A stretch of DNA of 64,000 nt, taken from the NCBI GenBank assembly GCA_015231405.1, contig JADGBR010000001.1:155964-219963 (forward strand). Direction: 5' to 3'. Position numbers and translations under genes: made by a program. The notes under the pieces were generated by a model that did not search any database, was not told the origin of the DNA, and worked only from the letters and a program-made list of their open reading frames with translations. The DNA comes from Candidatus Omnitrophota bacterium. GTDB lineage: Bacteria > Omnitrophota > Gorgyraeia > Tantalellales > Tantalellaceae. This document shows, one piece after another, positions 2,677 to 37,809 of this stretch. Every line of letters starts with the position of its first letter. Position 1 is the stretch's first letter.

Positions 2677-3473
2677 TAAGCCCATTGTTGAAAAAGATCC
2701 TTGTGTCCGTCGTATCGTTGGCGGTCATATTGCTTTTTTTCGCTTTTTTAGATTCCCGGAGGGTAACGCCCGTATTGATGTACCATTCAATAAGCGTCGG
2801 AGGTGATAGCGGCACGCTTCAAGTTTCTCCTGAAAACTTTGACAGGCAAATGCGCTACCTTTCCAGGCGAGGATATAAGGTTATAACTTTGGACGAGCTT
2901 TATTCGTTCATGAAAGAAGGCAAAAAATATCTTCCCCGCACCGTGGCCATAACATTTGACGACGGTTTCGAGGATAATTATGTTAACGCTTTTCCAATTC
3001 TTTCAAAGTATAACATGCCTGCGACGATCTTTCTCGTGACGGGGTATATCGGGAAAAAAGAGAAATATCTGAACTGGGACCAGGTGCGTCTCATGCAAAA
3101 AAACGGTATCGATTTTGGCTGCCATACAATGAATCACGCTTATCTTCCTACGCTAAAGAGCGAGGATGAAGTGCTGGCGGAGATAAACGGGAGTAAGAAC
3201 GACCTTGAAAATAATATCGGCACGGATGCCGGGTTCTTTTGTTATCCTACCGGCGGATATAATCAAAAGGTAAAAGAGCTTGTCAGGAGATCCGGATTTC
3301 TTATGGCGTTCACCACTAAACGCGGGGGTAATGCGGATAACATGGATCTATTCGCACTGAACAGGATCAAAGTAACTAACTCGGATATGGTGAAGCCCTT
3401 GCACTTTAAGGCCAAATTGTCAGGCTTTTATAACATACTCAGGACCGCCAGAGACGGGGAATCGGGGTATTAG
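2673..3473 (+). CDS. polysaccharide deacetylase (NodB-homology, CE4) with N-terminal TM anchor
   Basis: TFDDGFEDNY, FLVTGYIG, HTMNHAYL, CYPTGGY motifs of CE4 deacetylases. An alternative upstream ATG at 2643 overlaps the ferredoxin. Confidence 0.75.
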   Translation: MISPLLKKILVSVVSLAVILLFFAFLDSRRVTPVLMYHSISVGGDSGTLQVSPENFDRQMRYLSRRGYKVITLDELYSFMKEGKKYLPRTVAITFDDGFEDNYVNAFPILSKYNMPATIFLVTGYIGKKEKYLNWDQVRLMQKNGIDFGCHTMNHAYLPTLKSEDEVLAEINGSKNDLENNIGTDAGFFCYPTGGYNQKVKELVRRSGFLMAFTTKRGGNADNMDLFALNRIKVTNSDMVKPLHFKAKLSGFYNILRTARDGESGY

Positions 3474-23221: not shown

Positions 23222-23446
23222 ATCCCGTTCTCCTCTTACTTGGCATGATCCCGGTGTACTATTATGGGCCTTATCCCTCTCGCTTTTTCGACAGGTGAAG
23301 GGTCCGAGTCCTGGCGCCCTCTCGGTATGACAATGCTCGGTGGTTTGTCATTTTCGACGCATATAACGCTACTTTATGTGCCGAATATGTATTCTATATT
23401 CGAAGGACTTGGAAAAAGGAACAAAGGAGGAGGCCGATATCAATAA
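23222..23446 (+). pseudogene. remnant of the C-terminus of an RND (AcrB-family) efflux transporter
   Basis: GLIPLAFSTGEGSESWRPLGMTMLGGLSFSTHITLLYVPNMYSIFE matches the last TM/C-terminal consensus of AcrB-type pumps (GliPLa.stGaGse.rrplG....gGl..st.LTL..vP..Y). Only about 60 aa, frame-broken upstream. No pump body. Confidence 0.5.
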
Positions 23447-23447
23447 A

Positions 23448-23603
23448 ATGGTGATGATAACCTACTATGAGGGGCTGGACTCGGATGTGATGGAGCTTCT
23501 TAATAGGACGGGACTTGCCAATTACACTAATATGACAGGAAATTACGGCCGTGGCGATTGGTCAGGTACTCATCTAGGTGACGATATATGGCCGGGTGAT
23601 TAA
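23448..23603 (+). CDS. small hypothetical ORF (51 aa) upstream of the giant gene
   Basis: AGGAGGAGG about 14 nt upstream of ATG 23448. No homology recognised. Confidence 0.2.
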   Translation: MVMITYYEGLDSDVMELLNRTGLANYTNMTGNYGRGDWSGTHLGDDIWPGD

Positions 23604-23842
23604 TAATGTATTGTACGTTTCCTGCCCTCTGGATCAAGCAGTAAAATTATTGTCCGGTGATCAGGACACTTCGAAAAACTTTTGCCGCTGACGGTATTAA
23701 AGCCTTCATGATGCCGGTTGATGATATAACCTGAACGGTTCTTCAGCCATCATAGTTAGCCACATAAAAAGTTGCAAAAGAGATTTTATTCAGCCATAGT
23801 TAAGGTAATAAACAGATTAAAAATATTAACTACCATCTTACT

Positions 23843-26800
23843 ATGAAAAAATTCAACACGCTAATATTGTTGATTTCTTTTACCATCAATCAGATGGTGA
23901 TCCCCGTAAAAGCGGACGTCGCAAAGCTGATAGATCCCGGTACTTTCTACATACCCGGAAAGATCGGTGAAATAATGACTTTGGTCAAAGGGAATTCAGG
24001 AAAGACCATAATTAATATAACTGACGCGCACTGCAATTATTCTGCCCAGGACAATATCTGCAAGATACTTCAATATTTGACATCAAACGAAACCCCTGAG
24101 ATCGTCTTTCTTGAGGGGGGATCGGGCAAATATGATTTCAGCGTTTTCGATAAAATTAATGACACAGAAATTAAAGAGAGGATCGTCGAAATATTACTTA
24201 AAGAAGGAAGGCTCTCGGGCGCGGAGAAATATGGTATAGGATCCAATAACAGCATAAGGCTCGAGGGGCTTGAAGAAAAGGATCTTTATGACAAAAATCT
24301 CGGGTATTACAGAGGATCCCTGACAATGAAGGATACAGTCCAGCCTTATCTGGATAAATTAAGAGGGATCCTCGCGAAAATCAAAAAGAACCTGTATTCC
24401 GAAGAGATGATCAAGATCGATGATATGTTCGACAGGTATGAGTCAGGGGAACTTAACATAAAAGACCTTATTGTTTTGATCTCAGGTCTTTTGGCGCAAA
24501 AGAGCGCGGATCTCCTGGCGTATAAGAACATAGTCGGCCTCGCTGGGATAGTGAACGATGAGAAGAGGATTGATTTCGAAAGGGCAGAGAAAGAGATGGA
24601 AAATGTGATGGACCTTTTGACCAAAACACTTCCAGGGAACGAGAGAACAAAACTCCTTGAGCAGCTGACGGGATTTAAGGACGGCGATATCGATAAGGAA
24701 ATGTTTTACGGATATCTTTTTAAACAGCTCCGGCTGTCTTCGGCTGACATGTCCAATTACGAGAACCTAAGGAAATATTCGGAATATATATCAGGGTATG
24801 AAAACATCGATAAAGGCGAGCTTGCCAGAGAGATCCGAAGAGCCCGTACTGACCTTTTTGAAAAGTCATTTACTGGAGACGATCAGAAAGAATTATTCGC
24901 GCTAGTGAATTATCTGGTCGCCGTCGATAAGCTCATTAACGCAAAGCTCGTTAAGGAAGAATTCAATGATTATATAAAAATGGCATCAAGAGTTGACCTT
25001 GACGGGGTCAAAGCGTTCATAGCCAAAAACTATCCCATTGACGGGGATCATCTTAATATGAGCGAAGCCCAAAATGAATACCCAATGATCGTGGATCTGA
25101 TGGAAAAATTTTACAAATGCTCTTTTGAAAGGGATGTTGTATTCCTCGGCAAGATCGACAAGTATATGACCGTTAATAAAATGAAGAGCGCGGTCATGGT
25201 TACCGGAGGTTTTCATAAAGATAATCTGAAAGGCCTGTTCGAAAAAGCGGGTTTTAATTACATAGAAGTGATGCCGGTAATTAAAAAGACCGATGTGGCG
25301 AATAATTATTTTAAACTGCTTTCAGGTGAACGGTCCGATCTCGAGGGATTCATTGATACTGCCGTGTCACTCCTTCCCGGGAATTCATTCCTGGCTTTAA
25401 GGAGCGTTTTCTCCGAGATGGGGATATCCGACATAAAGGCAGGGAACGAAACTGTCCTTAAGATCGCGATGCTTGAAAAACTCCTGAACGGTGAGGAGTT
25501 CACGATAAGGACGAAGCAAGGCTGGTGGATAGTGATTTCGCCCGAAGGAGTGAAAAGCGTTAACGCAAACGTATTTAAGAGCGATACCGGAACGATAGGG
25601 GGCCAAAAGATCACCGCGGAAGTATTCAGGCCCGAAGCCAGATTCGACGCAAATGTCAGCGAGGCGGATATCGTTCTTGTGGACGGGGACGAGCTCAATC
25701 ATATTCAGCAGGAGTTGTGGATAGACGGGCTAGGAAAGGAAATGGGGTATAAGGCATTGAGAGATGTCATCGACACGGAGCCATTTATCGACAAGCTTTA
25801 TGAATTCGGCCTTGAAGAGCAGCATGTCGAATATCTTAAGCTGAATTATATTAATACCGATAAGCTAAGGGTGTGGAACGATAAGGACATGCGTATGCCT
25901 GTCGACGGTCATCCCGGAGCGGAGGGCGTTGTCTATTTGACAAGCCATCTTTTCAACGCGAATGACACCAGAGGAGCCGTACTCGCTTTCCTTCACGAAC
26001 TTGGAGGGGCTTATAAGAACGGCGAATTGAAGCGTACCCATGCAGATAATAGACAGCTTGACGACGCTTACGCCTCCGGTGACAGGGACCTCATAAAAAA
26101 GAAGGCTATTGAAATAGTCGAATTCGCTTCCGGCGGGACAGGCATGGCTCGTGGTGAAAAAAGGGATTATGCCGATAAAGTCGATATGGAGGCGGCGAAG
26201 CCGGTAACGATAGAGGACTTTGAGACCCTGACGAGCGATCACCAGAAAGAAAATGTCATAAGGGAGCTGAAAACCATACACGCTGAAATCATGTCGATGG
26301 CCGAGGAATACAAAGAGAGAACGGGTGATCCTAAATACCTGACGATAACGATGAGGGAACAGAAACGGTTCCTTAAAACATTTGAAAGCGTTTATTATAA
26401 ACGCATAAAAGAAACCGGAGACGAAAGTCTTTCGTACGCACATGCGCTTAATACGGCTAAACAGGGCTACTACGATATTTTTCCTGAAAGTTTCGTTCGA
26501 GAGGAGATCGGGGACGTTAATGTACATGACGCCCCGTTGCCTGAAGAACTGGACGCCTTGCATTCCGAGGTCTACCGAAAGCTGTCGAGGGCCATAGACA
26601 CCGATTTTCCGTCGCTTTTCAACTGTCCGGTAGACACTCTTGGAGAGCTGGACGACGCGCTCGATATCTATGTCAGGAACCACAGCGGGATAGGCAAGGT
26701 CGAAAAGGTCGTGTGCACGCCGGATACCGACAGCACGCAGTTGATAGGTTGCCTTCTGCCCGTCGATCCGAAAGACAGGAAGGGAGCGGAAAAGGTGCGG

Positions 26801-29800
26801 TTTGAGATGGGGGTTATTTACCGGATGGTGGAACATGCCAGAGACGATCCGGAACATACGCATATATTAAGATTGGACCAACTGGAGGCTTTATCCCCCA
26901 AAGTATGGGTCATATTGAACCAGTTCCTGTTAACGGACGAAATGACGGTGCCTGAAGCCGACCCGACCAAAGGAAAAGCCGTAAGGAAACTGAAACGGCC
27001 GAAAAATCTGAAGATCATAACGTCTATAAATAAGGGTCTGGATGACAGCGCGTTCTATGACAGGTTTTTAAGAAAGACCATTGACTCCCCGAGCGATGAG
27101 GTGCTGGGGGCATATATAATGAGCCATTATGGTCTTCCGGAATGGGCCGCGAAAGATATGGTCAGCCTGAAAAACAATAATGAAGCGGTAAATAACGGTC
27201 AGTTGTTCATTATCCTGGATTATATCAAAGGCAGGCTGTCGGAATCTGAAAGTAAAGGTGAAAAGGCCTTGAAGGATATCATTGACCAGGAAGTCGGCCT
27301 TTATTTAGGGAACCTTAAACCGCTTAAGCCGGGGGACGGATATGAGACCAAAGTCGAATTCAAGGACGATAAGCTCATGTTTGACGGCGTCGAGCTCGCA
27401 ATTAATGACGGGCTTAGAGCTAAGATAAAACAGGCGGTAAAAAGCCAGGACGACATCGAAGCCATTAAAAAAGCCATAAAAGAAACTGTCTCTATCAGCA
27501 TGACGAGGGACGTGGCGAGGGCCTTGAGCGCTATCGCGAGGAATTACCGCTATGGGAATAAGGTTATCCAGCTCGAGGGCCCTACCGGGTCCGGAAAGAC
27601 CTTCCTCGCGGAATCATTGGCTAAAATGCTGAATATCCCGTTTTATGGGGAACCTTTCCATGCCTCCAGTAAGCAGACAAAGCTTCTTGGGTCTTTTGTC
27701 CCGGATCCGACAGGGGAGTTCTACCTTGATACGGACACGCAGTTCCTCCGGCATATACAAGACGGTGGGGTAATAGCCTTATCCGAACTTAACGCCTGCG
27801 AAAAGGACGGGTACGCGCGATTCGGCTGGTTGATGGTCCCGTTCGCTAGCGGTGAAGATACGCTCGAACTAAACCAGTATCCTTTACCCGGAGAGGGCGG
27901 GGAAATGTTCAGGTCGGTAAAAAGGCATAAGGATTCGATGATCATCATAGACACCAACCCTTCGGACGCTTATAAGTCCAGAGCGGCCCTCCCGCCGATG
28001 CTGAACGCCTATACCCCGAAAGTATGGGTGGAGGGAAAGTATACCATGGAGGAGCTTAAAGAGATATCAGCCGACTTCATCGAAAGTAAAGAGGTAAGCG
28101 GCGATGAAAAGGGTTTCTTTACGGATGTCCTTTCCGAACTCCATTTTAAGGTCCAGGAGGAGCTCGAGAGAACAGATCCGAAGTTATCCAGAGGCCGTGA
28201 GCATATAGTAACGATGAGGGAGCTTACGCGTACGAGTAAAATGATAAGGAGCGAAAATAAGAATAAAGATAAAGGCCAGAACTATTATGACGCGGCCATG
28301 CTTTATTACGGATCGGCGTTCAAGAATGAGGCCGATAGAGAGCTGGTAAAGGGTTATATTAAAGAAATATTATCCGGGCAAGGTATAGCTGTTTCCTGCC
28401 TTAAAGAGAGGGATGACAATTATTTTCTTAGAACGTCGATCCTTAACACTAAAAACTCGACAATGCTCTCGCTTCCGGCGATGGATAACCCCTTTGATGT
28501 AATACAGGAAGCGCTCGGTGAAGAAAAGAATGTCGAGGTCGAAAAGTATAACGCCAATTATTTTACCGACGATTTCGGTCTTTTAGGAGGTTATGTGCCT
28601 AATGAAGGGAGCAAATATAACGAGGAAATGGCCTTCCGCATGGTCGACGGTATCATACTGAAGAACATAAAAAAAGCGTTGAAAGAAAAGGATAAGACTT
28701 TTATCCTGGCTTTCGAGAATTTCCATTATCTGAGGCCCAAGATGGCGGTAGCGCTTAATTCAATACTCCAGGACAGGGTATATTATTCGATAGCTAAAGA
28801 AGGCGGCGTGAAAACAAAAGAAAGGATAGAAATACCCGACAACCTGAAGTTCGTCTCCACCGCTTCTAACGAGGTCGAGTTCCAGATGTCTCTGGCGGAA
28901 CAGTCCAGGTGGGTAAGGATATTCGGTTCCGGAGATAAGTCCAGGGCTCCGCCCGAAGAAAGACAAGCGAAAGTATACGCCGACGCCGATGAATTAAGAA
29001 AAGCTTACAAAAAAGATCGTTCTCAGCTAGACCCGAATATACATCCGGAGCCGGTCACTGACGGGAAAGGGCTTCTCGTCCCGACCAAAGAAATGATGGA
29101 AGCTGAAAGCCGGATGGTTGATGCGATGGACGATGATAAAGTCATTCTCCTGGAAGGCCCCCCTGGAGGCGGAAAAACGGAATACGCTTTGGATATAGCG
29201 AACAGGCTTGGCCTAAAATCCTATCTGTATTCGGCCCACGCGAATTCCCATCTCAGGGACCTTATCGGCAGTTATGTGCAGGATAAGGACGGGAAATATG
29301 TTCTTACGGCCCGTGAAAAAGACGGCCATTTTATGGCTCCGTTCCTTGAATGTCTTAAGAACGGCGGTGTGTTCATTATAGACGAGGGCGCTATAGGAGT
29401 TAACGCCCAGGCCATTATTAGCTGGCTTACGGGTATTGCAAGAGGCGATAAAGAGATAGCCATAAACGAACATCTCGGAATGGATGAGCCGTTAAGGATC
29501 AAAAGGCATGAGAACTTTCATCTTGTCATCACCACAAATCCCGTCGAAGAAACCCCTGACAGGATGAAAATACCCATAGAGGTCCTTGAACGTTCGGAAC
29601 GCATTTGGGTGACGGATGACATTTGCAGGAAATCATATGATAGTATCACGGAATTCTTTTACGATCTTTACGCCGGAAATGACCCGAAAATGGCGGAGCA
29701 TAAGAAGAACTATACCGTTGCCGCTCTTTCAAGCCTCCATATAAAGATGAAAGAAATACTTTCCGCGCAGGGGTTCGTTAATGACCCGGACAGGCATCTT

Positions 29801-32800
29801 ATGACATTGCGCGACCTTAAGGCCTTGATCGCCGCTTTCAGTTATTATGTAAAGGCCGGAATGGATAGTAAACCCGCATTCAACGCCGCCTTTGAGCTTG
29901 TGTATCTGGCTCAATTCAGTGACTTGGTCAAAATCCAGATACTAAAGAAGCTTGAAGAAGTATTGGATGGCAACGCGAAAGACAGGATAGACTTCAATGC
30001 CGGACGCTTCGAGGACAAGCCGATGGATATGGCTGGCATGATAAAGAGAGGCCCAATGGCCCAGTCCGAACAAAAAGTTATAAAACAGATAAAAGACCTG
30101 ATCGGGATAAATAAAAATCCGCTTCTTCTACTCGAACCGGGATCAAGGGAAAAAGAGATCATATCCGCTTTTTCCGAAAAAGAAGGATATGAGCTATTCC
30201 ACTGCGATAGCCACCCGGAGATGACCAGTTTGGACCTTATCGGAGGCACGTTCCCGTTCTTTGAGGAAAAGGGCATGGAGGCGGAAAGGTTAAGTGAATT
30301 GCCTGGTTTTATCGGGAGGCATCTTGTCCGGAAAGAAGATATAGATAAACCGGGTGAAAAAAAGCTTCTTGTTATACACAATATTGACGCCCTTCATGAA
30401 AAAGTCAGGACAGTCCTAAATAATTTTCTGCTTAAAGGTTCCATCGATATCCAGGATCAAATGGGAAGGACCAGGACGATGTATCTGCCGAAAAATGTCA
30501 GGATAATGGCGGCCTGCTCGGAAAAGACGGGTGAGGAAATATCCGGGGCGTTCTGGAACAGGTTCCAGAAAATAGATGTGCCGCCGATAAGTTATATGGA
30601 GAACGGTAATTCGGAGCTGCTCGAGCTCCTTTTGTATGATTCGGGCCTGTCGGAATACGGCGCGATGGGGGAAATGGTATCCAGATATATCCAGTATCTG
30701 CACTCTTTCACTGACCGGTTGGACGCGGAGAGCGAGTGGCCTTCGGGGAAAAAGTACGCATTCACGGTAAAAGAGGCTTTGCTTCTCGGGAAATACGTGA
30801 AGATAGCGATAGACGACGCGAAAAAAGACCCAGAGGAAATAGACGTAGCTAAGGCGAAAGAGATGGTCATCAGGGAAGCTTATAACCTGTACGGGGGTAA
30901 GATAAAAGAACATCAAAGCGACCTGGATTTCTTCGAGCAGAACGTTCTTAAGATCATATTCGATCACAGGCTGGTAAAGAATTTATCGGGTACTGTCGTG
31001 AAGGAAAAAGGCGTCGTTACGGAACTGGCCGGGGTTAAATTGCCGCACGGGACAAAAGGTAAAAGGCTTGAGGATATAGATCCCGAATACAGGCTTATTC
31101 TCGTAAAAGAAATAGTCAATACGATGGCTGGCATCGTCAGGGCCTGGAGATCCGGGAAAGTGGTCTCCATGACCGGTGAAACGGGAACCGCGAAAACCAC
31201 GATGGGGGTTTTTCTTTCTCAGCTTATGTTCGGGGAAGAGGCCGGAGAGGACAGCTACTACATATTTTCGACCCACGGCGCGTCGAAAGCAAGAGACCTT
31301 GAATATCAGCTGAGGATGACCGAGGAAGGCAAGTACCGGCTGGAAATACAGGAATTCATTAAGAAGATAGAGGAAGGGAATAAGGTCATCATAATCGACG
31401 AGGCGAACATGAGGCCGGAGATGCTCTGGGCAATTAACGCCATAGCGAGGGGCGAGAAGGAGATAACGCTTCAGATCCCGGGCGAAAAACAATACAAGGT
31501 AAGGGTAGGCGACAACGTCAATATCATAATGACTATGAACCCCACAAGCTATAAAGACAGGAAAGATGTTCCCGGGATACTTAAGGAGAATGTCGTGAAC
31601 CTGTGGTCCAGCCTCAATTACTCGGAAGCCGAGATGGACATGATACTTAAGGGGATGATGGGAGCGATGGAGCGAAAACTGCTGGGTAAGAAAGGGAAAG
31701 TGTCACAGGAAGCGGAAACAAGCGAGGAGGATAAGGCAATCCCGGCAAAAGACGGCGTTTTTGAGGATTTCAGGGGGTCGATCGATCTTGAGAAATTCCT
31801 GGAAAGGGTATACGAGTTCGGACATGACGAGGCTCTCGAAAAAACGCCGCAGGAAGTGATCTCAAATTTGGAAAAAGAACTGCTTGAAAGAGATGACGTC
31901 AAGAAGCGCATGGCGAGGATCGAAACGACGGTCAAGAACCTTACACGGGGCATATCTGTCGAATATTCAACATATTATCCGTGGGGGCAGTCGAACGAGG
32001 CTGGGAAGTTACTTATTCCTCTCGATCAGCTGGTCAATCCTCTTCTTACGGACGACATGATAATCTCCTTCATAATGCACGAAATAAGGCATTGGAGATA
32101 TTCGCCGACCCCTAAAGATATTATGGGGGATATCGCGGAGGATCTTGTGAAAACTATCCCTAAAGCGAGGGAGATCCTGTCTTCGAGCGATTTTAATTAT
32201 TATTGGAATGTCCTTGAAGATCACAGGATAAACGCGGTGCGAACTCGTTTTGACGGCGAGAATTCATATATAGATACCTTTATAGGAACGAACTTTACTG
32301 ATCCCGAACAATCTCTAAAAATACAGGAAAAGCTGGAGACTTTCATAGATGGAGGAGAATACATAAGGGCTTTCTGGGAATATATACTATACTACGGATA
32401 TGCGCGGGAACATACACCCGGATTTCCAAGGTATCCGAAGGCCTTAAGGGACGCGATCAATAAAATAACGGACGGCGGGGATAATTCGGTCTTGTACAGA
32501 GCGGTATTGTCGGGCGATGTCCATCCGGACTACGATGCGCTGGTAATTGATAAGAACGCCCCTGAGAACAGGGCGAAGATGATAAAAGCCGCCATTAACA
32601 GTTTGAAGGTCATAATAGGCGAAATACATCCGGTATTTCTTGAAGTCGTTGAATATGAAAGAAAAGAGCGGGAGAAAAAGCATAAAGACAAGGATAAAGG
32701 CGAAAAAACGAAAAAAGAGGCGAAAGCACCGAAAGAAGCTAAAGAAGCGAAACAACGGCCCATAGAGGATCTTTCCGAAGGACCTCTTACCCAGGCTCCT

Positions 32801-35800
32801 TTAAGCCCGCCGCCGGGTGCGATGCCAAATAATGATAAGGGTGTTGAGACGCCCGTTGATATGCCTAAGCCCTGGGATGAAAGGCCACAAACGGATATAC
32901 CGTTAACAGGCACCTCCGGTTCCGGAGCTTCCGATGAGAAAGGCCGGGGGGAACAAGGTGAAAGTGCTCCGGGTGACGATATGTCAGGGGAAGAATATCC
33001 TTCGGGAATGGATAAGGGAGCCGGACCGGTGATGCCAGGTTCTGATGCTTTTTCCGGAAAAACCATTAACTATGATCCCGTACAATGGAAAGAGATGACT
33101 AAAGAGGAGCTCGAGAGATTGATAGAGAAAAGTAAAAGGATAAGAGGTGCTACGGAGTTACCGGAGGAATCATCTAATGATTTTCTGGCCGAGATAAGGA
33201 GGATAGTCGAAAATCCGCCTGAAACACCTCATGAGTTTGAAGGGTACAGGAAATTCTACAGGGAATTTGTAGAACAGGTTAAATATTCGCACAATATGGC
33301 TATTACGGATGAATTATTCGAATACTATGGGCATCTCATTAAAAACGCCAAGACACTCCGGGATGTTATCGACCGGCTGCCGGAAGAGATCAAAAAGCTG
33401 ATGGACGAAACACGGGAACTGTTCGAGGAGATCGAGGAGGACATCGAGCAGGAAAACAGCGAAACGGGTATGCAAATCGATATTGAGGCGAAATGGAGCA
33501 GAAAAAAAGAACAATTCATAGAAAATATTATAAAGGATAGGAAAAGATCGGATATAGCTGTAGGGGTTACGCTCGTCCCTGATATGTGGGCGAGCGGGGC
33601 ATATGAAGAGATACTTGCCGTGTTCCTTCAGACTTTCAATAAGCTGGAGAGAAGGAAGGTCGAGTACAGCGTGAGTTTTAGCGATGTCTCATATTCTTTG
33701 CGGGAAGGCATAGCGTTCAACGAAAAGGTAAAGAAAATGGAACAGCTCGAGCAAAGGTACAGAGAAATGCTTCTGTACTTGGCTTTGACCAATCACGGTA
33801 ATAATCAACAGTCTTCAAAGGTGGGTATCGGTAGATTCACGCCGCTTAAGCTGGTCCTAAGCATAATGCAGAAATATTCCGGAGTTAAAAAAACGAATAA
33901 GATCGAGTTTATCGTTACGGATGGGTCGATCGAGGAAACGTCCTGTTATATGTTCTTCCCGTCGGAAACCGGGAAAGGGTATCTGGGGAGCGACGATATC
34001 TTTCTAAGACCGAGCGGCGTTATCGGCCCGTATTACGATATGCCGGGTTGTACCAAAGACCTGGTAATGGAAGCGACAGAGGCGCTCAATTATCTGGCGA
34101 ATTATGAGCATAATTTAAGGATATGGAAGGCGTGCATACAAAGGGCGAAAGATGGCGGCATGACAGACGCGGAATTAAAAAGAAAAGGGCTGACCGAAGA
34201 TGAGTTCCCGGGATTGCACGTACTTAAAAATGATCCGGACCCAAGAAGCATGGGAGCTCGATTGGCGAAGGAATATGGCTTCAGATTCGACCAATGGGGT
34301 TATAACTGGCCCAGCGTGACGGAAAAAGTGAGCATGAGTGACAGGATAAAGGCCATAATAAGAGCCAGCGACCTTGTCACGCGCCTAAGAATGAAAGCCG
34401 GTATAATATTGCCGGCATCCGAGGAATATCTTGAAAGAGCGAGACAGGCTCCGGGCGGGGATAAGGCTAAATTCGGTATGCCTGTTCCGACCCGGAAATT
34501 AGCCGACGCTTTAAGTGACGCGAAGTCGAAAGGGATAGATATTATAGGGGTGGGAACTAAAAAGGAATACAAGGGAGTTCAGCTATTCGATTCATGGATC
34601 TATATCGACGGATATTCACCGCATGTGGTCACTTTCCTCATGCTGGAGCTGTCCAACTATAAAAAGAAACACCCGGGAGATTTTCCGAAAGGTGATCTTT
34701 TTGAGAACTTGCCGGGGTTAAGGGAAAAAGCCGATAAAATGCAAAAAGAGACGGCCAGTGCCGCTAAGATGCCCGGCATGAAAGCTCCCTCGGAAAATAG
34801 CATAGAAATGAACCTTCTTGATCTTGAGAATAACTCTGCGCCGGTACAGCATGAGGAAATACTGATCAAACGAAAGATCGAATTAGGAGGCGACGGGCGC
34901 GAGTTAAAAGTCGCATTCAGGGTGCTTGACGAAAATGTCGCTGACAAAGTCAAGAGTGTAGCTATGAGCCCGAGCAAGGCTTTCTTCGATATTGGCGGAG
35001 ATACCTTTTTTGCCGTGAGGAGAGAAATGCCGGACGGTTCCATAAATATATTTCTGACTAAAAAGTCGATGGCCAGGCTTATCGTCGACGAAAAGGCTCT
35101 CATGGCCCTTGCTATGCACGAAGTTTACGATACCGGCGAGAAGGAAGGGCCCGGTTCGCATAAATGGGCGTGGGATAAAGTCAAAAAGGAGAACCCCGAA
35201 GGTATGAGCTCTCTCCTTAGATTCATGATCGACAATATGGATGAGGCCCAAGTTAAAGCTCTTGCATCCGAATATGAAGAAGACCTTTCGGGAAGAAAAG
35301 CGTCGGGAGAGTGGGGGCCATTCGAGGAAGATATTCACTCATATTGCCTGGGAAGGCTCGATGCGATCAGGACTTCAACGGAAACGGATAAAAATTCGAT
35401 ACTTAAATATGAATTATCAGGAACATCGGAAGGCCGCCTGGAAAAAATAAGGTGTGAGTCCGGCATTGCTCCTGAAACGAATTCAACGGAGAAGGCGAGA
35501 TCCGAGATGCTGGACGTTTACGGTAAACTCCTGTCCGGAGTTTACAAGAATACGCATAATAAGGAGAAATGTTATGATTTCATATTGAGCGCTGTCCCCA
35601 CGGCAAAGGACGATGAAGGGCAACCGGTCGATTACGCCGAAAGCGTCCTATCAGGGCTCATGGGTAAATTAAGGAGCCAGGGAGACGCCGCGGTAGCAAA
35701 AGCTCAGATAGGGAATATAACGTCCAGGTATACGATGGGAGCTTTAGCGGCAAAGAGCATGGTCGAGAGTATTGTCGAGCTTTCAAAAAGCGTTCCCGAT

Positions 35801-36277
35801 GGGAGGATACACTGTTCGATCAGCGCAAAAATACTTAAGGAGCTCGAAGAGCTGAACGCAGGTGAACAATTCATTGTAGGAACTGTAAAAGACTTTTTGA
35901 CGGGACATGTGATGCTCGACATTATAACCGATACCGCTACGACGGAGAAGGAAGAGACCGTATACCCGCTTTCCTTCGCCAAGTGCAAGGCATTAGGCCT
36001 CGCCAGGTTCAACATGGCGCATGTGGGGGCGATGGTGGATAAGAACGACGACCTGTATAAAAGTTCATTAAGGCTTGTAGGCCTCGCGATCGCGTATTTG
36101 ACCAATAACACGGACAACGCGGATAATATCGTCAAATCGCTGGAGGAGGCTTCGGGAAAAGATAAAGAATTCTATAAAAGGGTTTTCGAGCTTGTGCTGC
36201 CCGAAGTGGCTAAAATAAACATAAACGAGATTAACAATATATTTCAGGCCGAAGCGGAGGTATTCGCGTCTCTCTAA
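23843..36277 (+). CDS. giant midasin-like AAA+ protein (4144 aa): signal/anchor peptide, TraB/GumN-like domain, six tandem AAA_5 modules (alternating degenerate/intact), helical HExxH region, acidic/Pro-rich disordered linker, VWA-like segment, ~700 aa unknown
   Basis: Single uninterrupted ORF. Signal-like N-terminus MKKFNTLILLISFTINQMVIPVKA. TraB/GumN motifs (IINITDAHCN about aa 57; MVTGGFHKDNLKGLFEKAGFNYIEV about aa 452). Walker A boxes GPTGSGKT (nt 27578), GPPGGGKT (nt 29168), GETGTAKT (nt 31175), each with an hhhhDE Walker B and a TNP/MNP sensor-1 (AAA_5 hallmark). Three interleaved AAA-like modules lacking Walker A (about nt 26700, 28500, 30120). HEIRH at nt 32078. K/E- then P/G/D/E-rich low-complexity at 32660-33070. 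FIVTDGSIEE (VWA TDG motif) at nt 33907. Confidence 0.85.
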   Translation: MKKFNTLILLISFTINQMVIPVKADVAKLIDPGTFYIPGKIGEIMTLVKGNSGKTIINITDAHCNYSAQDNICKILQYLTSNETPEIVFLEGGSGKYDFSVFDKINDTEIKERIVEILLKEGRLSGAEKYGIGSNNSIRLEGLEEKDLYDKNLGYYRGSLTMKDTVQPYLDKLRGILAKIKKNLYSEEMIKIDDMFDRYESGELNIKDLIVLISGLLAQKSADLLAYKNIVGLAGIVNDEKRIDFERAEKEMENVMDLLTKTLPGNERTKLLEQLTGFKDGDIDKEMFYGYLFKQLRLSSADMSNYENLRKYSEYISGYENIDKGELAREIRRARTDLFEKSFTGDDQKELFALVNYLVAVDKLINAKLVKEEFNDYIKMASRVDLDGVKAFIAKNYPIDGDHLNMSEAQNEYPMIVDLMEKFYKCSFERDVVFLGKIDKYMTVNKMKSAVMVTGGFHKDNLKGLFEKAGFNYIEVMPVIKKTDVANNYFKLLSGERSDLEGFIDTAVSLLPGNSFLALRSVFSEMGISDIKAGNETVLKIAMLEKLLNGEEFTIRTKQGWWIVISPEGVKSVNANVFKSDTGTIGGQKITAEVFRPEARFDANVSEADIVLVDGDELNHIQQELWIDGLGKEMGYKALRDVIDTEPFIDKLYEFGLEEQHVEYLKLNYINTDKLRVWNDKDMRMPVDGHPGAEGVVYLTSHLFNANDTRGAVLAFLHELGGAYKNGELKRTHADNRQLDDAYASGDRDLIKKKAIEIVEFASGGTGMARGEKRDYADKVDMEAAKPVTIEDFETLTSDHQKENVIRELKTIHAEIMSMAEEYKERTGDPKYLTITMREQKRFLKTFESVYYKRIKETGDESLSYAHALNTAKQGYYDIFPESFVREEIGDVNVHDAPLPEELDALHSEVYRKLSRAIDTDFPSLFNCPVDTLGELDDALDIYVRNHSGIGKVEKVVCTPDTDSTQLIGCLLPVDPKDRKGAEKVRFEMGVIYRMVEHARDDPEHTHILRLDQLEALSPKVWVILNQFLLTDEMTVPEADPTKGKAVRKLKRPKNLKIITSINKGLDDSAFYDRFLRKTIDSPSDEVLGAYIMSHYGLPEWAAKDMVSLKNNNEAVNNGQLFIILDYIKGRLSESESKGEKALKDIIDQEVGLYLGNLKPLKPGDGYETKVEFKDDKLMFDGVELAINDGLRAKIKQAVKSQDDIEAIKKAIKETVSISMTRDVARALSAIARNYRYGNKVIQLEGPTGSGKTFLAESLAKMLNIPFYGEPFHASSKQTKLLGSFVPDPTGEFYLDTDTQFLRHIQDGGVIALSELNACEKDGYARFGWLMVPFASGEDTLELNQYPLPGEGGEMFRSVKRHKDSMIIIDTNPSDAYKSRAALPPMLNAYTPKVWVEGKYTMEELKEISADFIESKEVSGDEKGFFTDVLSELHFKVQEELERTDPKLSRGREHIVTMRELTRTSKMIRSENKNKDKGQNYYDAAMLYYGSAFKNEADRELVKGYIKEILSGQGIAVSCLKERDDNYFLRTSILNTKNSTMLSLPAMDNPFDVIQEALGEEKNVEVEKYNANYFTDDFGLLGGYVPNEGSKYNEEMAFRMVDGIILKNIKKALKEKDKTFILAFENFHYLRPKMAVALNSILQDRVYYSIAKEGGVKTKERIEIPDNLKFVSTASNEVEFQMSLAEQSRWVRIFGSGDKSRAPPEERQAKVYADADELRKAYKKDRSQLDPNIHPEPVTDGKGLLVPTKEMMEAESRMVDAMDDDKVILLEGPPGGGKTEYALDIANRLGLKSYLYSAHANSHLRDLIGSYVQDKDGKYVLTAREKDGHFMAPFLECLKNGGVFIIDEGAIGVNAQAIISWLTGIARGDKEIAINEHLGMDEPLRIKRHENFHLVITTNPVEETPDRMKIPIEVLERSERIWVTDDICRKSYDSITEFFYDLYAGNDPKMAEHKKNYTVAALSSLHIKMKEILSAQGFVNDPDRHLMTLRDLKALIAAFSYYVKAGMDSKPAFNAAFELVYLAQFSDLVKIQILKKLEEVLDGNAKDRIDFNAGRFEDKPMDMAGMIKRGPMAQSEQKVIKQIKDLIGINKNPLLLLEPGSREKEIISAFSEKEGYELFHCDSHPEMTSLDLIGGTFPFFEEKGMEAERLSELPGFIGRHLVRKEDIDKPGEKKLLVIHNIDALHEKVRTVLNNFLLKGSIDIQDQMGRTRTMYLPKNVRIMAACSEKTGEEISGAFWNRFQKIDVPPISYMENGNSELLELLLYDSGLSEYGAMGEMVSRYIQYLHSFTDRLDAESEWPSGKKYAFTVKEALLLGKYVKIAIDDAKKDPEEIDVAKAKEMVIREAYNLYGGKIKEHQSDLDFFEQNVLKIIFDHRLVKNLSGTVVKEKGVVTELAGVKLPHGTKGKRLEDIDPEYRLILVKEIVNTMAGIVRAWRSGKVVSMTGETGTAKTTMGVFLSQLMFGEEAGEDSYYIFSTHGASKARDLEYQLRMTEEGKYRLEIQEFIKKIEEGNKVIIIDEANMRPEMLWAINAIARGEKEITLQIPGEKQYKVRVGDNVNIIMTMNPTSYKDRKDVPGILKENVVNLWSSLNYSEAEMDMILKGMMGAMERKLLGKKGKVSQEAETSEEDKAIPAKDGVFEDFRGSIDLEKFLERVYEFGHDEALEKTPQEVISNLEKELLERDDVKKRMARIETTVKNLTRGISVEYSTYYPWGQSNEAGKLLIPLDQLVNPLLTDDMIISFIMHEIRHWRYSPTPKDIMGDIAEDLVKTIPKAREILSSSDFNYYWNVLEDHRINAVRTRFDGENSYIDTFIGTNFTDPEQSLKIQEKLETFIDGGEYIRAFWEYILYYGYAREHTPGFPRYPKALRDAINKITDGGDNSVLYRAVLSGDVHPDYDALVIDKNAPENRAKMIKAAINSLKVIIGEIHPVFLEVVEYERKEREKKHKDKDKGEKTKKEAKAPKEAKEAKQRPIEDLSEGPLTQAPLSPPPGAMPNNDKGVETPVDMPKPWDERPQTDIPLTGTSGSGASDEKGRGEQGESAPGDDMSGEEYPSGMDKGAGPVMPGSDAFSGKTINYDPVQWKEMTKEELERLIEKSKRIRGATELPEESSNDFLAEIRRIVENPPETPHEFEGYRKFYREFVEQVKYSHNMAITDELFEYYGHLIKNAKTLRDVIDRLPEEIKKLMDETRELFEEIEEDIEQENSETGMQIDIEAKWSRKKEQFIENIIKDRKRSDIAVGVTLVPDMWASGAYEEILAVFLQTFNKLERRKVEYSVSFSDVSYSLREGIAFNEKVKKMEQLEQRYREMLLYLALTNHGNNQQSSKVGIGRFTPLKLVLSIMQKYSGVKKTNKIEFIVTDGSIEETSCYMFFPSETGKGYLGSDDIFLRPSGVIGPYYDMPGCTKDLVMEATEALNYLANYEHNLRIWKACIQRAKDGGMTDAELKRKGLTEDEFPGLHVLKNDPDPRSMGARLAKEYGFRFDQWGYNWPSVTEKVSMSDRIKAIIRASDLVTRLRMKAGIILPASEEYLERARQAPGGDKAKFGMPVPTRKLADALSDAKSKGIDIIGVGTKKEYKGVQLFDSWIYIDGYSPHVVTFLMLELSNYKKKHPGDFPKGDLFENLPGLREKADKMQKETASAAKMPGMKAPSENSIEMNLLDLENNSAPVQHEEILIKRKIELGGDGRELKVAFRVLDENVADKVKSVAMSPSKAFFDIGGDTFFAVRREMPDGSINIFLTKKSMARLIVDEKALMALAMHEVYDTGEKEGPGSHKWAWDKVKKENPEGMSSLLRFMIDNMDEAQVKALASEYEEDLSGRKASGEWGPFEEDIHSYCLGRLDAIRTSTETDKNSILKYELSGTSEGRLEKIRCESGIAPETNSTEKARSEMLDVYGKLLSGVYKNTHNKEKCYDFILSAVPTAKDDEGQPVDYAESVLSGLMGKLRSQGDAAVAKAQIGNITSRYTMGALAAKSMVESIVELSKSVPDGRIHCSISAKILKELEELNAGEQFIVGTVKDFLTGHVMLDIITDTATTEKEETVYPLSFAKCKALGLARFNMAHVGAMVDKNDDLYKSSLRLVGLAIAYLTNNTDNADNIVKSLEEASGKDKEFYKRVFELVLPEVAKININEINNIFQAEAEVFASL

Positions 36278-37809
36278 CCCCAGAGGTTGCGGTCCAGGCA
36301 CCTGTATCCTATCGCTTCGGAAACGTTATGCGTGTTGATGACCTCCGAGCCTTCCATGTCGGCTATCGTTCGTGATAATTTCAGTATCTTGTCGTAAGCC
36401 CTGGCCGAAAGACCCATTTCAAGTATTACCGTTTTCAGGATATATTCCGCTTCTTTTGAGAGAACCGAGTGCTTGTCGAGCTCTTTCGGTGACATGTAAG
36501 CGTTGATAGCGAGGTGGCAGCTTTTTTCCGCGAACCGCTCTCGTTGTATAGCCCTCGCCTTAAGCACTCTTTGTTTAACTCGTGAAGTCGTTTCGCCCGA
36601 GCGTTTTCCTGAAAGTTGTTCGTAGTTGAGCCTTGGGACTTCCAGGTGTATATCAATGCGGTCAAGTAATGGGCCGGATATTTTAGACAGATATTTCTGT
36701 ATCTGTCCGGGATTACACCTGCACTCCTTTTTCGGGTCAGTTAGGTTCCCGCACGGGCAGGGGTTCATAGCGGCAATTAGTATGAACCTGGAGGGGTATT
36801 TGATCGAGCGTTCGGCCCGTGATATGGAGATCTCGCCTGATTCAAGGGGTTGTCTTAGCGTTTCGATGACGTCGCGCCTGTATTCCGGAAATTCGTCAAG
36901 GAATAGGACTCCGTTGTGGGCGAGGCTTATCTCCCCGGGGCGTGTATGAACCCCTCCTCCGGCCATGGCGGCATAAGAGATCGTGTGATGCGGGGCCCTA
37001 AAGGGGCGTTCGTCGACGAGGTCCTCATTCTTGAGTTCGCCCGCGATACTGTATATCTTCGTCGTTTCAAGCGACTCTTCATATGAGAGGTCCGGAAGCA
37101 GATAAGGGAACCTTTTCGCTAGCATGCTTTTACCAGAACCCGGCGGGCCAATTAAAAGGATGTTGTGGTTGCCCGAGGCGGCAATCTCAAGCCCTCTTTT
37201 TACGTGTTCCTGTCCTTTAACGTCTGAAAGGTCCCACAAATCTGACGGATTCTTCAGGGATGATATATTTTGGCGGGGTTTGACGGGTTCCATCGGTTCC
37301 GCGCCTGTCACATGCCTGATTATCTCATCAAGGGAACGGGCGCCGAAGATGATCATCCCATCGACATGTGAAGCTTCCCGGGAGTTAGAGACCGGCAGAA
37401 TAAAAGTAGGGAACCGGTTTTTTAGGGATATTGCCAGCGGAAGAGCGCCTTTAAAGGAACAAAGTTTACCCGTGAGCGACAGTTCCCCGCAAAAAAGGAT
37501 GTTATCCATTAGAGTCCCGTCGATCTGTTCCGAAGCGGCCAGTATTCCCAGAGCTATTGGGAGATCGAAACCGGAGCCTTCTTTTTTCATTCCTGCAGGA
37601 GCAAGATTGATAGTTATTTTTTTAGCCGGAAAAGAAAAACCCGAATTTCTGATAGCGGATCTTATCCTGGCGCGGCTTTCCTTAATAGAGCTGTCAGGGA
37701 GCCCAATTATTGAAAAGGAGGGAAGCCCCGAAGCCGTTACATCCGTTTCGACTGTTACCTGCTGTGATTCCATTCCTATCATGCAACCCGAATTGACTTT
37801 AGATATCAT
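36274..37809 (-). CDS. comM: Mg-chelatase-like AAA+ ATPase ComM/YifB family
   Basis: N-terminal Lon-protease-like/ChlI domain (GLPDSSIKESRARIRSAI, GSGFDLPIALGILAAS). AAA+ with Walker A GPPGSGKS. C-terminal Mg_chelatase_C. Convergent 4-bp overlap with the giant gene. Confidence 0.85.
   Translation of the reverse strand: MISKVNSGCMIGMESQQVTVETDVTASGLPSFSIIGLPDSSIKESRARIRSAIRNSGFSFPAKKITINLAPAGMKKEGSGFDLPIALGILAASEQIDGTLMDNILFCGELSLTGKLCSFKGALPLAISLKNRFPTFILPVSNSREASHVDGMIIFGARSLDEIIRHVTGAEPMEPVKPRQNISSLKNPSDLWDLSDVKGQEHVKRGLEIAASGNHNILLIGPPGSGKSMLAKRFPYLLPDLSYEESLETTKIYSIAGELKNEDLVDERPFRAPHHTISYAAMAGGGVHTRPGEISLAHNGVLFLDEFPEYRRDVIETLRQPLESGEISISRAERSIKYPSRFILIAAMNPCPCGNLTDPKKECRCNPGQIQKYLSKISGPLLDRIDIHLEVPRLNYEQLSGKRSGETTSRVKQRVLKARAIQRERFAEKSCHLAINAYMSPKELDKHSVLSKEAEYILKTVILEMGLSARAYDKILKLSRTIADMEGSEVINTHNVSEAIGYRCLDRNLWG

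Follow-up and report, generated by a model that had tools for sequence, protein, structure and literature searches.

A giant ORF in an Omnitrophota genome

The window analysed here is a 64,000-nucleotide stretch of a 490,973-bp contig from a metagenome-assembled genome (MAG) of a Candidatus Omnitrophota bacterium. It exhibits a giant open reading frame (ORF) of 12.4 kb, which begins with an ATG and runs through 4144 codons without a single internal stop. An earlier reading of the letters alone (hereafter the sequence-only reading) had described one uninterrupted ORF at this place, and this is borne out. All ORFs overlapping it in other frames are of 332 amino acids (aa) or less, and both its GC content (0.44-0.49) and its positive GC skew are those of the flanking DNA. 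A stop-free run of this length in DNA of about 46% GC is far beyond chance. Thus the gene is real, and it is native in composition. No Shine-Dalgarno sequence is visible upstream of the ATG. The translation (our representative P0001) corresponds to the GenBank entry "AAA family ATPase [Candidatus Omnitrophota bacterium]". The features of the gene are collected in Table 1.

Table 1. Features of the giant gene, with nucleotide positions in the window and residue numbers in the protein.
Feature	Position	Strand	Remarks
Whole ORF	23843..36277	+	4144 aa plus stop; identical to MBF0215528.1
Sec-signal-like or anchor segment	23843..23914	+	MKK, TLILLISFTI, VKA/D; hydrophobicity scan, cleavage site by eye
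N domain, TIKI/TraB/ChaN/EreA-type alpha/beta fold	23915..25402	+	about 300-aa helical insert
Region without family match	25403..26335	+	aa 521-831; poorly predicted
Lid-like helical segment before A1	26336..26614	+	about 95 aa; resembles even-module lids (hhalign)
AAA module A1, degenerate	26615..27484	+	aa 925-1214; without Walker A/B; 'AFYDRF' arginine-finger box
AAA module A2, nucleotide-binding	27485..28474	+	aa 1215-1544; Walker A GPTGSGKT at aa 1246; midasin-type lid
AAA module A3, degenerate	28475..29074	+	aa 1545-1744; 'AEQSRW' arginine box kept
AAA module A4, active type	29075..30109	+	aa 1745-2089; Walker A GPPGGGKT at aa 1772; Walker B FIIDEG
AAA module A5, degenerate, no Pfam match	30110..31099	+	aa 2090-2419; 'LLEPGSRE' instead of P-loop
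AAA module A6, active type	31100..31822	+	aa 2420-2660; Walker A variant GETGTAKT at aa 2445; Walker B IIIDEAN
HExxH domain	31823..32722	+	aa 2661-2960; H2746-E-I-R-H2750, near-invariant E2792
Low-complexity linker	32723..33370	+	aa ~2940-3160; K/E-rich, then P/G/S/D/E-rich, then acidic helical
VWA domain, degenerate MIDAS	33371..34702	+	aa 3177-3620; D3247-M-W-A-S; TDG at 3359 kept
C-terminal tail	34703..36274	+	aa 3621-4144, 524 aa

Six AAA+ modules of two alternating kinds

The sequence-only reading had counted six tandem AAA_5-type modules. AAA_5 is indeed the best Pfam family of the modules, with matches at aa ~952-1075 (21.6 bits, just under the 22-bit cut-off), 1244-1322 (33.5 bits), ~1595-1660 (12.6 bits, weak), 1768-1902 (27.6 bits) and 2443-2575 (32.5 bits). 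Pfam gave no match for aa 2080-2420, the A5 region. When alignments of each module, built from relatives of the window protein, were compared by hhalign, all six segments, A5 included, matched midasin AAA modules at 96.4-99.9% probability. The count of six AAA+ modules therefore stands; Walker A and Walker B motifs are kept in A2, A4 and A6 only, and canonical Walker A sequences occur in the window protein solely at aa 1246, 1772 and 2445.

The same division is observed throughout the family of related bacterial proteins described below. Even modules are characterized by 'LEGPTGxGKT' and 'SELN' (A2), 'PGGGKT' and 'DEGAIG' (A4), and 'GETGxAKTT' and 'DEAN' (A6). The Walker B of A2 is a variant (IALSELN in the window protein), with serine replacing aspartate across the whole family. 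Odd modules have lost both the P-loop and Walker B and conserve an arginine box: 'AFYDR(F)' in A1, 'AExSR(W)' in A3 and 'SSAFFNRF' in A5, the last reading 'SGAFWNRF' in the window protein. The A5 box is paired by hhalign with 'LSRAFRNRF' of midasin. At the equivalent position of the even modules there is no conservation. In AAA+ rings, an arginine box of such type supplies the trans-acting arginine finger.

The two kinds of module are also distinct in overall sequence. In a phmmer self-comparison, A1, A3 and A5 match one another, as do A2, A4 and A6. The hhalign scores are 109-188 between odd modules and 186-300 between even modules, against 16-66 between odd and even ones. A module phylogeny, advised by the sequence-only reading, was computed by neighbor joining (NJ) with bootstrap; it recovers the odd and even classes at 100% and 99%, and each single module class at 74-95%, and leaves their relation to midasin open. 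This periodicity shows that the six modules arose by triplication of an (odd, even) pair. As judged from the motifs, the ring is of the type (inactive, active) x3, with three ATP-binding and three degenerate modules.

The helical segment preceding A1 resembles the lid of A4 (hhalign probability 96.5%, E-value = 8e-10) and, to a lesser degree, that of A2 (83%). A lid was sought after the large domain of A6 and none was detectable there. Together these two observations suggest that the N-terminal lid completes A6.

Domains outside the ring

The N-terminus carries the only hydrophobic segment of the window protein (aa 4-22), preceded by MKK and followed by VKA/D. A secretion or anchor signal had been proposed here, and aa 1-24 do look Sec-like to the eye, with a hydrophobic core of about 10 residues. 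The N domain that follows had been called TraB/GumN-like. Its fold is of the TIKI/TraB type, as claimed; a match to the Pfam family TraB_PrgY_gumN itself was not obtained. The residues invariant in this domain are D61, H63, Q69, E91, G92, E128, R430 and G455-G-F-H458, which include the observed DxH, E-G, E, R and GGFH motifs. Two toxin/effector domains, RRSP and HopBA1, are among its top structural matches. Pfam and NCBIfam gave no usable match for the N domain, aa 521-831, the HExxH domain, the VWA domain of the window protein or the C-terminal tail.

Between A6 and the linker lies a domain with an HExxH motif. In an alignment of 13 sequences, both histidines and the glutamate of the motif are invariant and a glutamate 46 residues downstream is near-invariant. 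An AlphaFold2 model of the domain (predicted local distance difference test, pLDDT, 88; predicted template modelling score, pTM, 0.83) places the motif on a helix following a three-stranded sheet. Sequence searches with this domain found no Pfam or PDB relative. The best fold matches of the model, all weak, are minigluzincins, BlaR1 and M1 peptidases. An HExxH motif between A6 and the VWA position is found in 38 of the 51 family representatives having at least 500 aa after A6. We regard the domain as a putative gluzincin-like metallopeptidase belonging to no described family. Two further 'HE' helices of the window protein, at aa ~735 and ~3765, were considered as degenerate copies of this domain, and were rejected since a profile search gave no support.

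The acidic, proline-rich linker of the sequence-only reading is present. It changes from K/E-rich to P/G/S/D/E-rich composition, and its acidity is highest at aa ~3075, shortly before the VWA domain, with 38 Asp plus Glu residues per 150 aa. The VWA-like segment deserves more caution. The C-terminal domain of the window protein aligns with the equivalent domains of its relatives, 9/9 of which match Pfam VWA (best E-value = 9.2e-13), and the canonical DxSGS...TDG signature is found in 38 of the 51 representatives. The window protein itself exhibits no match to Pfam VWA, its metal-ion-dependent adhesion site (MIDAS) reads DMWAS, and the domain is split after the TDG strand by an insertion of ~187 aa (nt 33932-34489). 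A post-VWA motif 'PxGD(L/M)' is near-invariant in the aligned relatives, its P, G and D being invariant or near-invariant; in the window protein it appears as 'FPKGDLFEN' (aa 3612-3620, window ~34670-34700). The aspartate of this motif could serve as an intramolecular MIDAS ligand. The 149 other proteins retrieved, from the bacterial family and the midasins, include no detectable relative of the tail.

A family of bacterial giants

Relatives were sought by HMMER with aa 1215-2414 as query in a library of 1.84 billion protein representatives. Of 605 matches, 232 have E-values of 1e-10 or less and 73 of 1e-30 or less. Prokaryotic giants of 2-7.6 kaa, or fragments of such, occupy ranks 2-87 and a few ranks further down, at 25-44% identity; from about rank 88 the matches are mostly eukaryotic midasins. 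About 85 family clusters (at the 50% identity level) exhibit collinear A1-A6. The order of the modules is constant in the bacterial proteins, and very large insertions can lie either in the A3-A4 interval, where they reach ~3400 aa, or in the A4-A5 interval, so that the ring tolerates inserts of 0.9-3.4 kaa. Such insertions were noted in P0002 (aa ~1900-2820), P0004, P0017 and P0028, and an additional one at the N-terminus of P0008; some look WD40/beta-propeller-like by eye. The recovery of the module classes in the NJ bootstrap implies that the six-module layout predates the diversification of the family.

The named sources are Omnitrophota, Auribacterota and IMG entries called "MoxR-like ATPase", and the database names are generic. 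A pattern scan of the GTDB species genomes revealed 15 loci, in Omnitrophota, Auribacterota, Elusimicrobiota, Planctomycetia and some MAGs labelled Actinomycetota. Two paralogues, MBF0215721.1 (6162 aa, on the same contig) and MBF0215968.1 (5104 aa), are encoded in the MAG of the window. Both exhibit the TIKI/TraB-like N domain, the A1-A6 ring and the HExxH domain, together with large A4-A5 insertions. The sequence of another relative, P0015 (4500 aa), recurs unchanged in independent JGI and Logan assemblies, which argues against assembly artefacts for the family. The genes neighboring it differ from those of the window, and its precomputed Pfam list includes a faint DYN_lid match.

Proposed mode of action and location

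We consider it probable that the product of the gene is a giant single-chain AAA+ machine, one of an uncharacterised bacterial family, in which a MoxR/midasin-class hexamer and its VWA adaptor have been fused. The best reading is that of a covalently fused remodelling or processing machine of the MoxR-VWA type. The six modules would form a closed ring, a pseudo-hexamer. Its three composite ATP sites (A2/A3, A4/A5 and A6/A1) would each be completed by an arginine that the degenerate module following it supplies in trans, and the lid-like segment before A1 would complete A6 at ring closure. The flexible tether would let the VWA domain capture a protein target and then fold back onto the ring, ATP turnover would pull on the captured target or remodel it, and the HExxH domain, possibly with the TIKI/TraB-like domain, would cut or process it. 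The site of action would be the cell envelope. This scheme for ring and VWA domain is modelled on the behaviour of midasin, NorQ-NorD, CbbQ-CbbO and RavA-ViaA, and precedents for MoxR-VWA coupling and for the midasin mechanism are available (PMC7159879, PMC3495828, PMC13036017, PMC11603028). The machine proposed here resembles the membrane-proximal systems of MoxR, VWA and peptidase that have been proposed earlier (PMC3495828). Considering the degenerate MIDAS, the VWA insertion and the extra tail, target recognition in the window protein has probably shifted away from classical metal-mediated binding.

Several points weigh against this fused-machine reading. We infer ring closure, the trans arginine fingers and the role of the pre-A1 lid from sequence. 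Since serine replaces the Walker B aspartate, A2 may bind ATP without hydrolysing it. The MIDAS motif of the window protein is degenerate. No gene neighbor is conserved between the locus of the window and that of P0015. Finally, a cleavable-looking Sec signal with no other transmembrane segment, taken literally, means an ATPase exported to an ATP-free compartment.

This last point bears on a different explanation, possible in our opinion and unlikely, that the protein is an exported giant effector: the Sec-type signal would export it, and its ring and putative hydrolase domains would do their work within the cells of a prey or host, which provide ATP. Most full-length relatives likewise start with a signal- or anchor-like segment, the structural resemblance of the N domain to RRSP and HopBA1 points the same way, and so do the expansion of paralogues and the very variable insertions. 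Such an effector would fit the predatory or parasitic lifestyle proposed for Omnitrophota, whose giant genes have been linked to predation (bioRxiv 10.1101/2023.11.21.568195). However, this same survey of Omnitrophota giant proteins (West-Roberts et al.) found AAA_5 to be frequent and predicted it to be exclusively intracellular. No genes for translocation or secretion systems are found nearby, and the signal was called by eye only. Furthermore, in seven relatives (P0018, P0025, P0038, P0042, P0054, P0022 and P0031) 2-6 transmembrane segments are predicted to separate the N domain from A1, and more are predicted at later positions. The former imply, in these proteins, a periplasmic N domain and a cytoplasmic ring, that is, a resident membrane machine. 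The window protein and its closest paralogues have no such segments, and the implied topologies are inconsistent within the family. Returning to the fused machine, its N-terminal segment may be an anchor with all else being cytoplasmic, the whole protein may be exported and act where ATP is available, for example inside prey, or the topology may vary among paralogues.

Relation to midasin

Searched against the PDB, the A4-module profile exhibits its best match to Rea1/midasin (E-value = 8.5e-67), far ahead of dynein (8e-10) and of NorQ (1.8e-7), the best bacterial match. The best stretch of Rea1 covers 285 of the 301 profile positions, lid included. A single-sequence PDB search gives the same ranking (3.4e-12 for midasin versus 6.4e-5 for NorQ). 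By these scores the closeness of the AAA modules to midasin is specific, exceeding that to every solved bacterial MoxR protein.

The sequence-only reading had seen in the order of domains the architecture that defines midasin. The order of ring, acidic tether and VWA domain does parallel that of midasin; the linker, the six Walker A motifs and the midasin-type MIDAS are lacking. The retrieved midasins carry five to six Walker A motifs, and the window protein carries three. The helical linker of ~1700 aa is absent, the gap from A6 to the VWA domain being only ~500 aa and consisting of the ~300-aa HExxH domain, for which midasin offers no match, and the low-complexity tether. Most full-length midasins reach 50-80 Asp plus Glu residues per 150 aa, so that the acidic stretch of the window protein is alike in position but much weaker in acidity. 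The family VWA profile matches integrin and collagen VWA domains and no midasin; two VWA domains of the family find no midasin MIDAS, and a midasin MIDAS finds no family member.

One reading of the remaining likeness is that the window protein is a direct bacterial relative or precursor of midasin, with ring, acidic tether and MIDAS inherited from a common ancestor. We regard it as rather improbable, even though midasin is the nearest relative outside the family both in the PDB and in the library of 1.84 billion proteins. Midasin's own modules exhibit an odd/even pattern (scores of 299-373 and 296-445 within the two classes versus 196-278 between them), and the bacterial odd modules find their highest scores with midasin AAA1/3/5. 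The even modules, however, have no preference for even midasin modules, no reciprocal best mapping of A1-A6 to AAA1-AAA6 was obtained by hhalign, and the NJ bootstrap supports the grouping of odd with odd and even with even at only 4% (and monophyly of the midasin modules at 10%). Moreover, AAA3/AAA5 are the generic best match of every prokaryotic multi-AAA_5 protein tested. An orthology of the odd modules with AAA1/3/5 was rejected on these last two grounds. The absence of the midasin linker and the failure of the family VWA to match the midasin MIDAS, which other prokaryotic giants do match, argue against direct precursorship as well. The claim that the protein belongs to midasin, or is its direct precursor, is thus not sustained: there is no orthology of modules, only three modules can bind ATP, strictly alternating with the others in a way not seen in midasin, and neither linker nor VWA domain is of the midasin kind. 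To our knowledge, the known substrates of midasin (ubiquitin-like (UBL)-domain assembly factors of pre-60S particles) are lacking in bacteria. By sequence, the window protein is a bacterial counterpart of midasin, the eukaryotic motor of ribosome assembly, and not its orthologue.

Midasin would also be the best non-family match if bacteria had recently acquired a midasin gene from eukaryotes and every other module had since decayed. We hold this to be very improbable. Midasin modules are matched at no more than ~25-30% identity, the family has diversified deeply over at least four bacterial phyla, with 25-45% identity between its members, modules are not orthologous, the TIKI/TraB-like, HExxH and generic VWA domains have no midasin counterpart, and the composition is native.

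Other prokaryotic giants came to light in the same searches. P0073 (MFC1753351.1; 4005 aa, from a Thermoproteota archaeon MAG) exhibits six AAA_5 modules with Walker A, all of them midasin AAA3/AAA5-like, a D/E-rich stretch and a C-terminal VWA domain that matches eukaryotic midasin MIDAS at about 1e-10. P0090, P0100 and P0111 make up a second class of such giants, which is separate from the A1-A6 family and has 8-11 AAA_5-type segments resembling midasin AAA3/AAA5; a midasin-type MIDAS is present in P0090 and P0111 as well, P0100 is a partial Omnitrophota MAG sequence, and P0152, a cluster mate of P0090, is 7592 aa long. The VWA domains of P0073, P0090 and P0111 match midasin MIDAS at about 1e-9 to 1e-11. 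By sequence comparison, these three surpass the family of the window protein in likeness to midasin, both in their AAA modules and in the MIDAS, and P0100 does so in its AAA modules. The window protein is thus part of one branch of a wider prokaryotic radiation of fused AAA_5 and VWA giants, which is apparently undescribed.

Neighboring genes

The genes around the giant ORF are ordinary bacterial ones. Directly upstream lies a gene for an HD-GYP response regulator, and farther upstream are genes for a LonC-like protease, ClpB, DnaJ, Dus and Maf. Downstream are a convergent gene of YifB/ComM type, a TPR protein and PolX. The YifB/ComM-type gene encodes a Mg-chelatase-like AAA+ protein of 511 aa (window 36274-37809, reverse strand), which is of the same broad AAA+ clade as the giant protein; its end overlaps the giant ORF stop codon by 4 nt. 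The giant ORF is separated from the HD-GYP regulator gene by 640 bp, and within this gap lies a 65-aa frame (window 23245-23440, forward strand) that is a remnant of an AcrB-family RND transporter. It corresponds to the extreme C-terminus (Pfam ACR_tran positions 973-1020 of 1021, E-value = 1.1e-14), and its truncation indicates a rearrangement of the locus directly preceding the giant gene. A 51-aa ORF after the remnant (23449-23604) exhibits no Pfam match. Rfam and tRNA scans of the window were empty. The exact window protein had no record in the contig index, and a metagenome scan for close orthologues yielded one weak match and no independent assembly of the exact gene.

This missing second assembly, the rearranged locus and the orphan nature of tail and VWA insertion could be taken as signs of an assembly chimera or a decaying pseudogene, a reading that is hardly credible given the uniform composition of 4144 stop-free codons, a module order identical to that of dozens of relatives, the intact catalytic motifs of A2, A4, A6 and the HExxH domain, and the exact reproduction of the homologue P0015.

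Implications and comparison with known systems

In published accounts, single-module MoxR ATPases are the forerunners of midasin and dynein, and the fusion of six modules is placed early in eukaryotic evolution (PMC3495828). We tentatively put forward, as a possibility that we do not rate as likely, that the 3+3 bacterial family, the archaeal class with six active modules (P0073) and midasin/dynein all descend from one prokaryotic multi-module ancestor, the ring having been inherited by eukaryotes. If true, the design of hexa-AAA ring, tether and VWA domain, long held to be an early eukaryotic invention from MoxR, predates eukaryotes, and the bacterial family would provide the first case of an AAA+ ring in which catalytic and arginine-donor modules alternate, hard-wired, along one chain. 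A diverse bacterial family already exhibits six fused modules and a tethered VWA domain, with midasin as the nearest solved relative. Together with the archaeal class, it provides concrete sequences for testing the origin of the midasin/dynein ring, which is of relevance to AAA+ specialists and to the study of eukaryogenesis. The strict alternation of nucleotide-binding and arginine-donor modules is a natural experiment on how many active sites an AAA+ ring needs. For the biology of Omnitrophota, the family defines a class of giant genes that are enzyme-like as opposed to adhesin-like, with several paralogues per genome. In the Omnitrophota giant-gene preprints we found AAA_5 mentioned only as a frequent intracellular domain, and no six-module ring, 3+3 alternation or midasin relationship. 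Our literature search found no bacterial or archaeal midasin-like single-chain ring, though a brief mention in Iyer et al. 2004 or Garbarino & Gibbons 2002 is possible.

Among known systems, midasin (Rea1/MDN1) shares with the window protein one giant chain, six tandem AAA_5-type modules, lids of the midasin/dynein type, the 'SxAFxNRF' arginine box and a low-complexity acidic tether followed by a C-terminal VWA-fold domain. The window protein differs in keeping Walker A/B in three alternating modules only and in its generic (integrin/collagen-like) VWA domain with a degenerate MIDAS. It further adds a signal-like N-terminus, a TIKI/TraB-fold domain, an HExxH domain and an orphan tail, and its family is bacterial, with paralogues and huge variable insertions.

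The dynein heavy chain is likewise a single-chain ring of six AAA+ modules, some of which do not bind nucleotides, and members of the A4-module alignment match dynein lid and AAA_6 profiles. In dynein, however, the degenerate modules are AAA5-6 and do not alternate, and a VWA domain is absent; the window protein, for its part, has no stalk/microtubule-binding domain and no linker. As an analogy only, the alpha3beta3 assembly of F1-ATPase exhibits three catalytic sites, each completed by an arginine of a non-catalytic neighbor. Its RecA-like fold is of an unrelated lineage and its subunits are separate, whereas in the window protein the parts are AAA+ modules joined covalently. The likeness is suggested by the complementary loss of motifs. 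The N domain has the alpha/beta fold characteristic of the TIKI/TraB/PrgY/ChaN/EreA/RRSP superfamily, from which it differs by its ~300-aa helical insert and by its fusion to an AAA+ ring.

The MoxR-VWA pairs (NorQ-NorD, CbbQ-CbbO, RavA-ViaA and CoxD-CoxE) belong to the same helix-2-insert/AAA_5 lineage and are coupled to a VWA adaptor. The mode of action is likely the same, with the VWA domain binding the target and the ring remodelling it (PMC7159879, PMC13036017). These pairs are homohexamers of ~270-500-aa subunits with a separate VWA protein. In contrast, the window protein is a single 4144-aa fusion with three degenerate modules; the sequence-only reading was correct in setting it apart from an ordinary MoxR and VWA gene pair, since ring, tether and adaptor are all in one chain.

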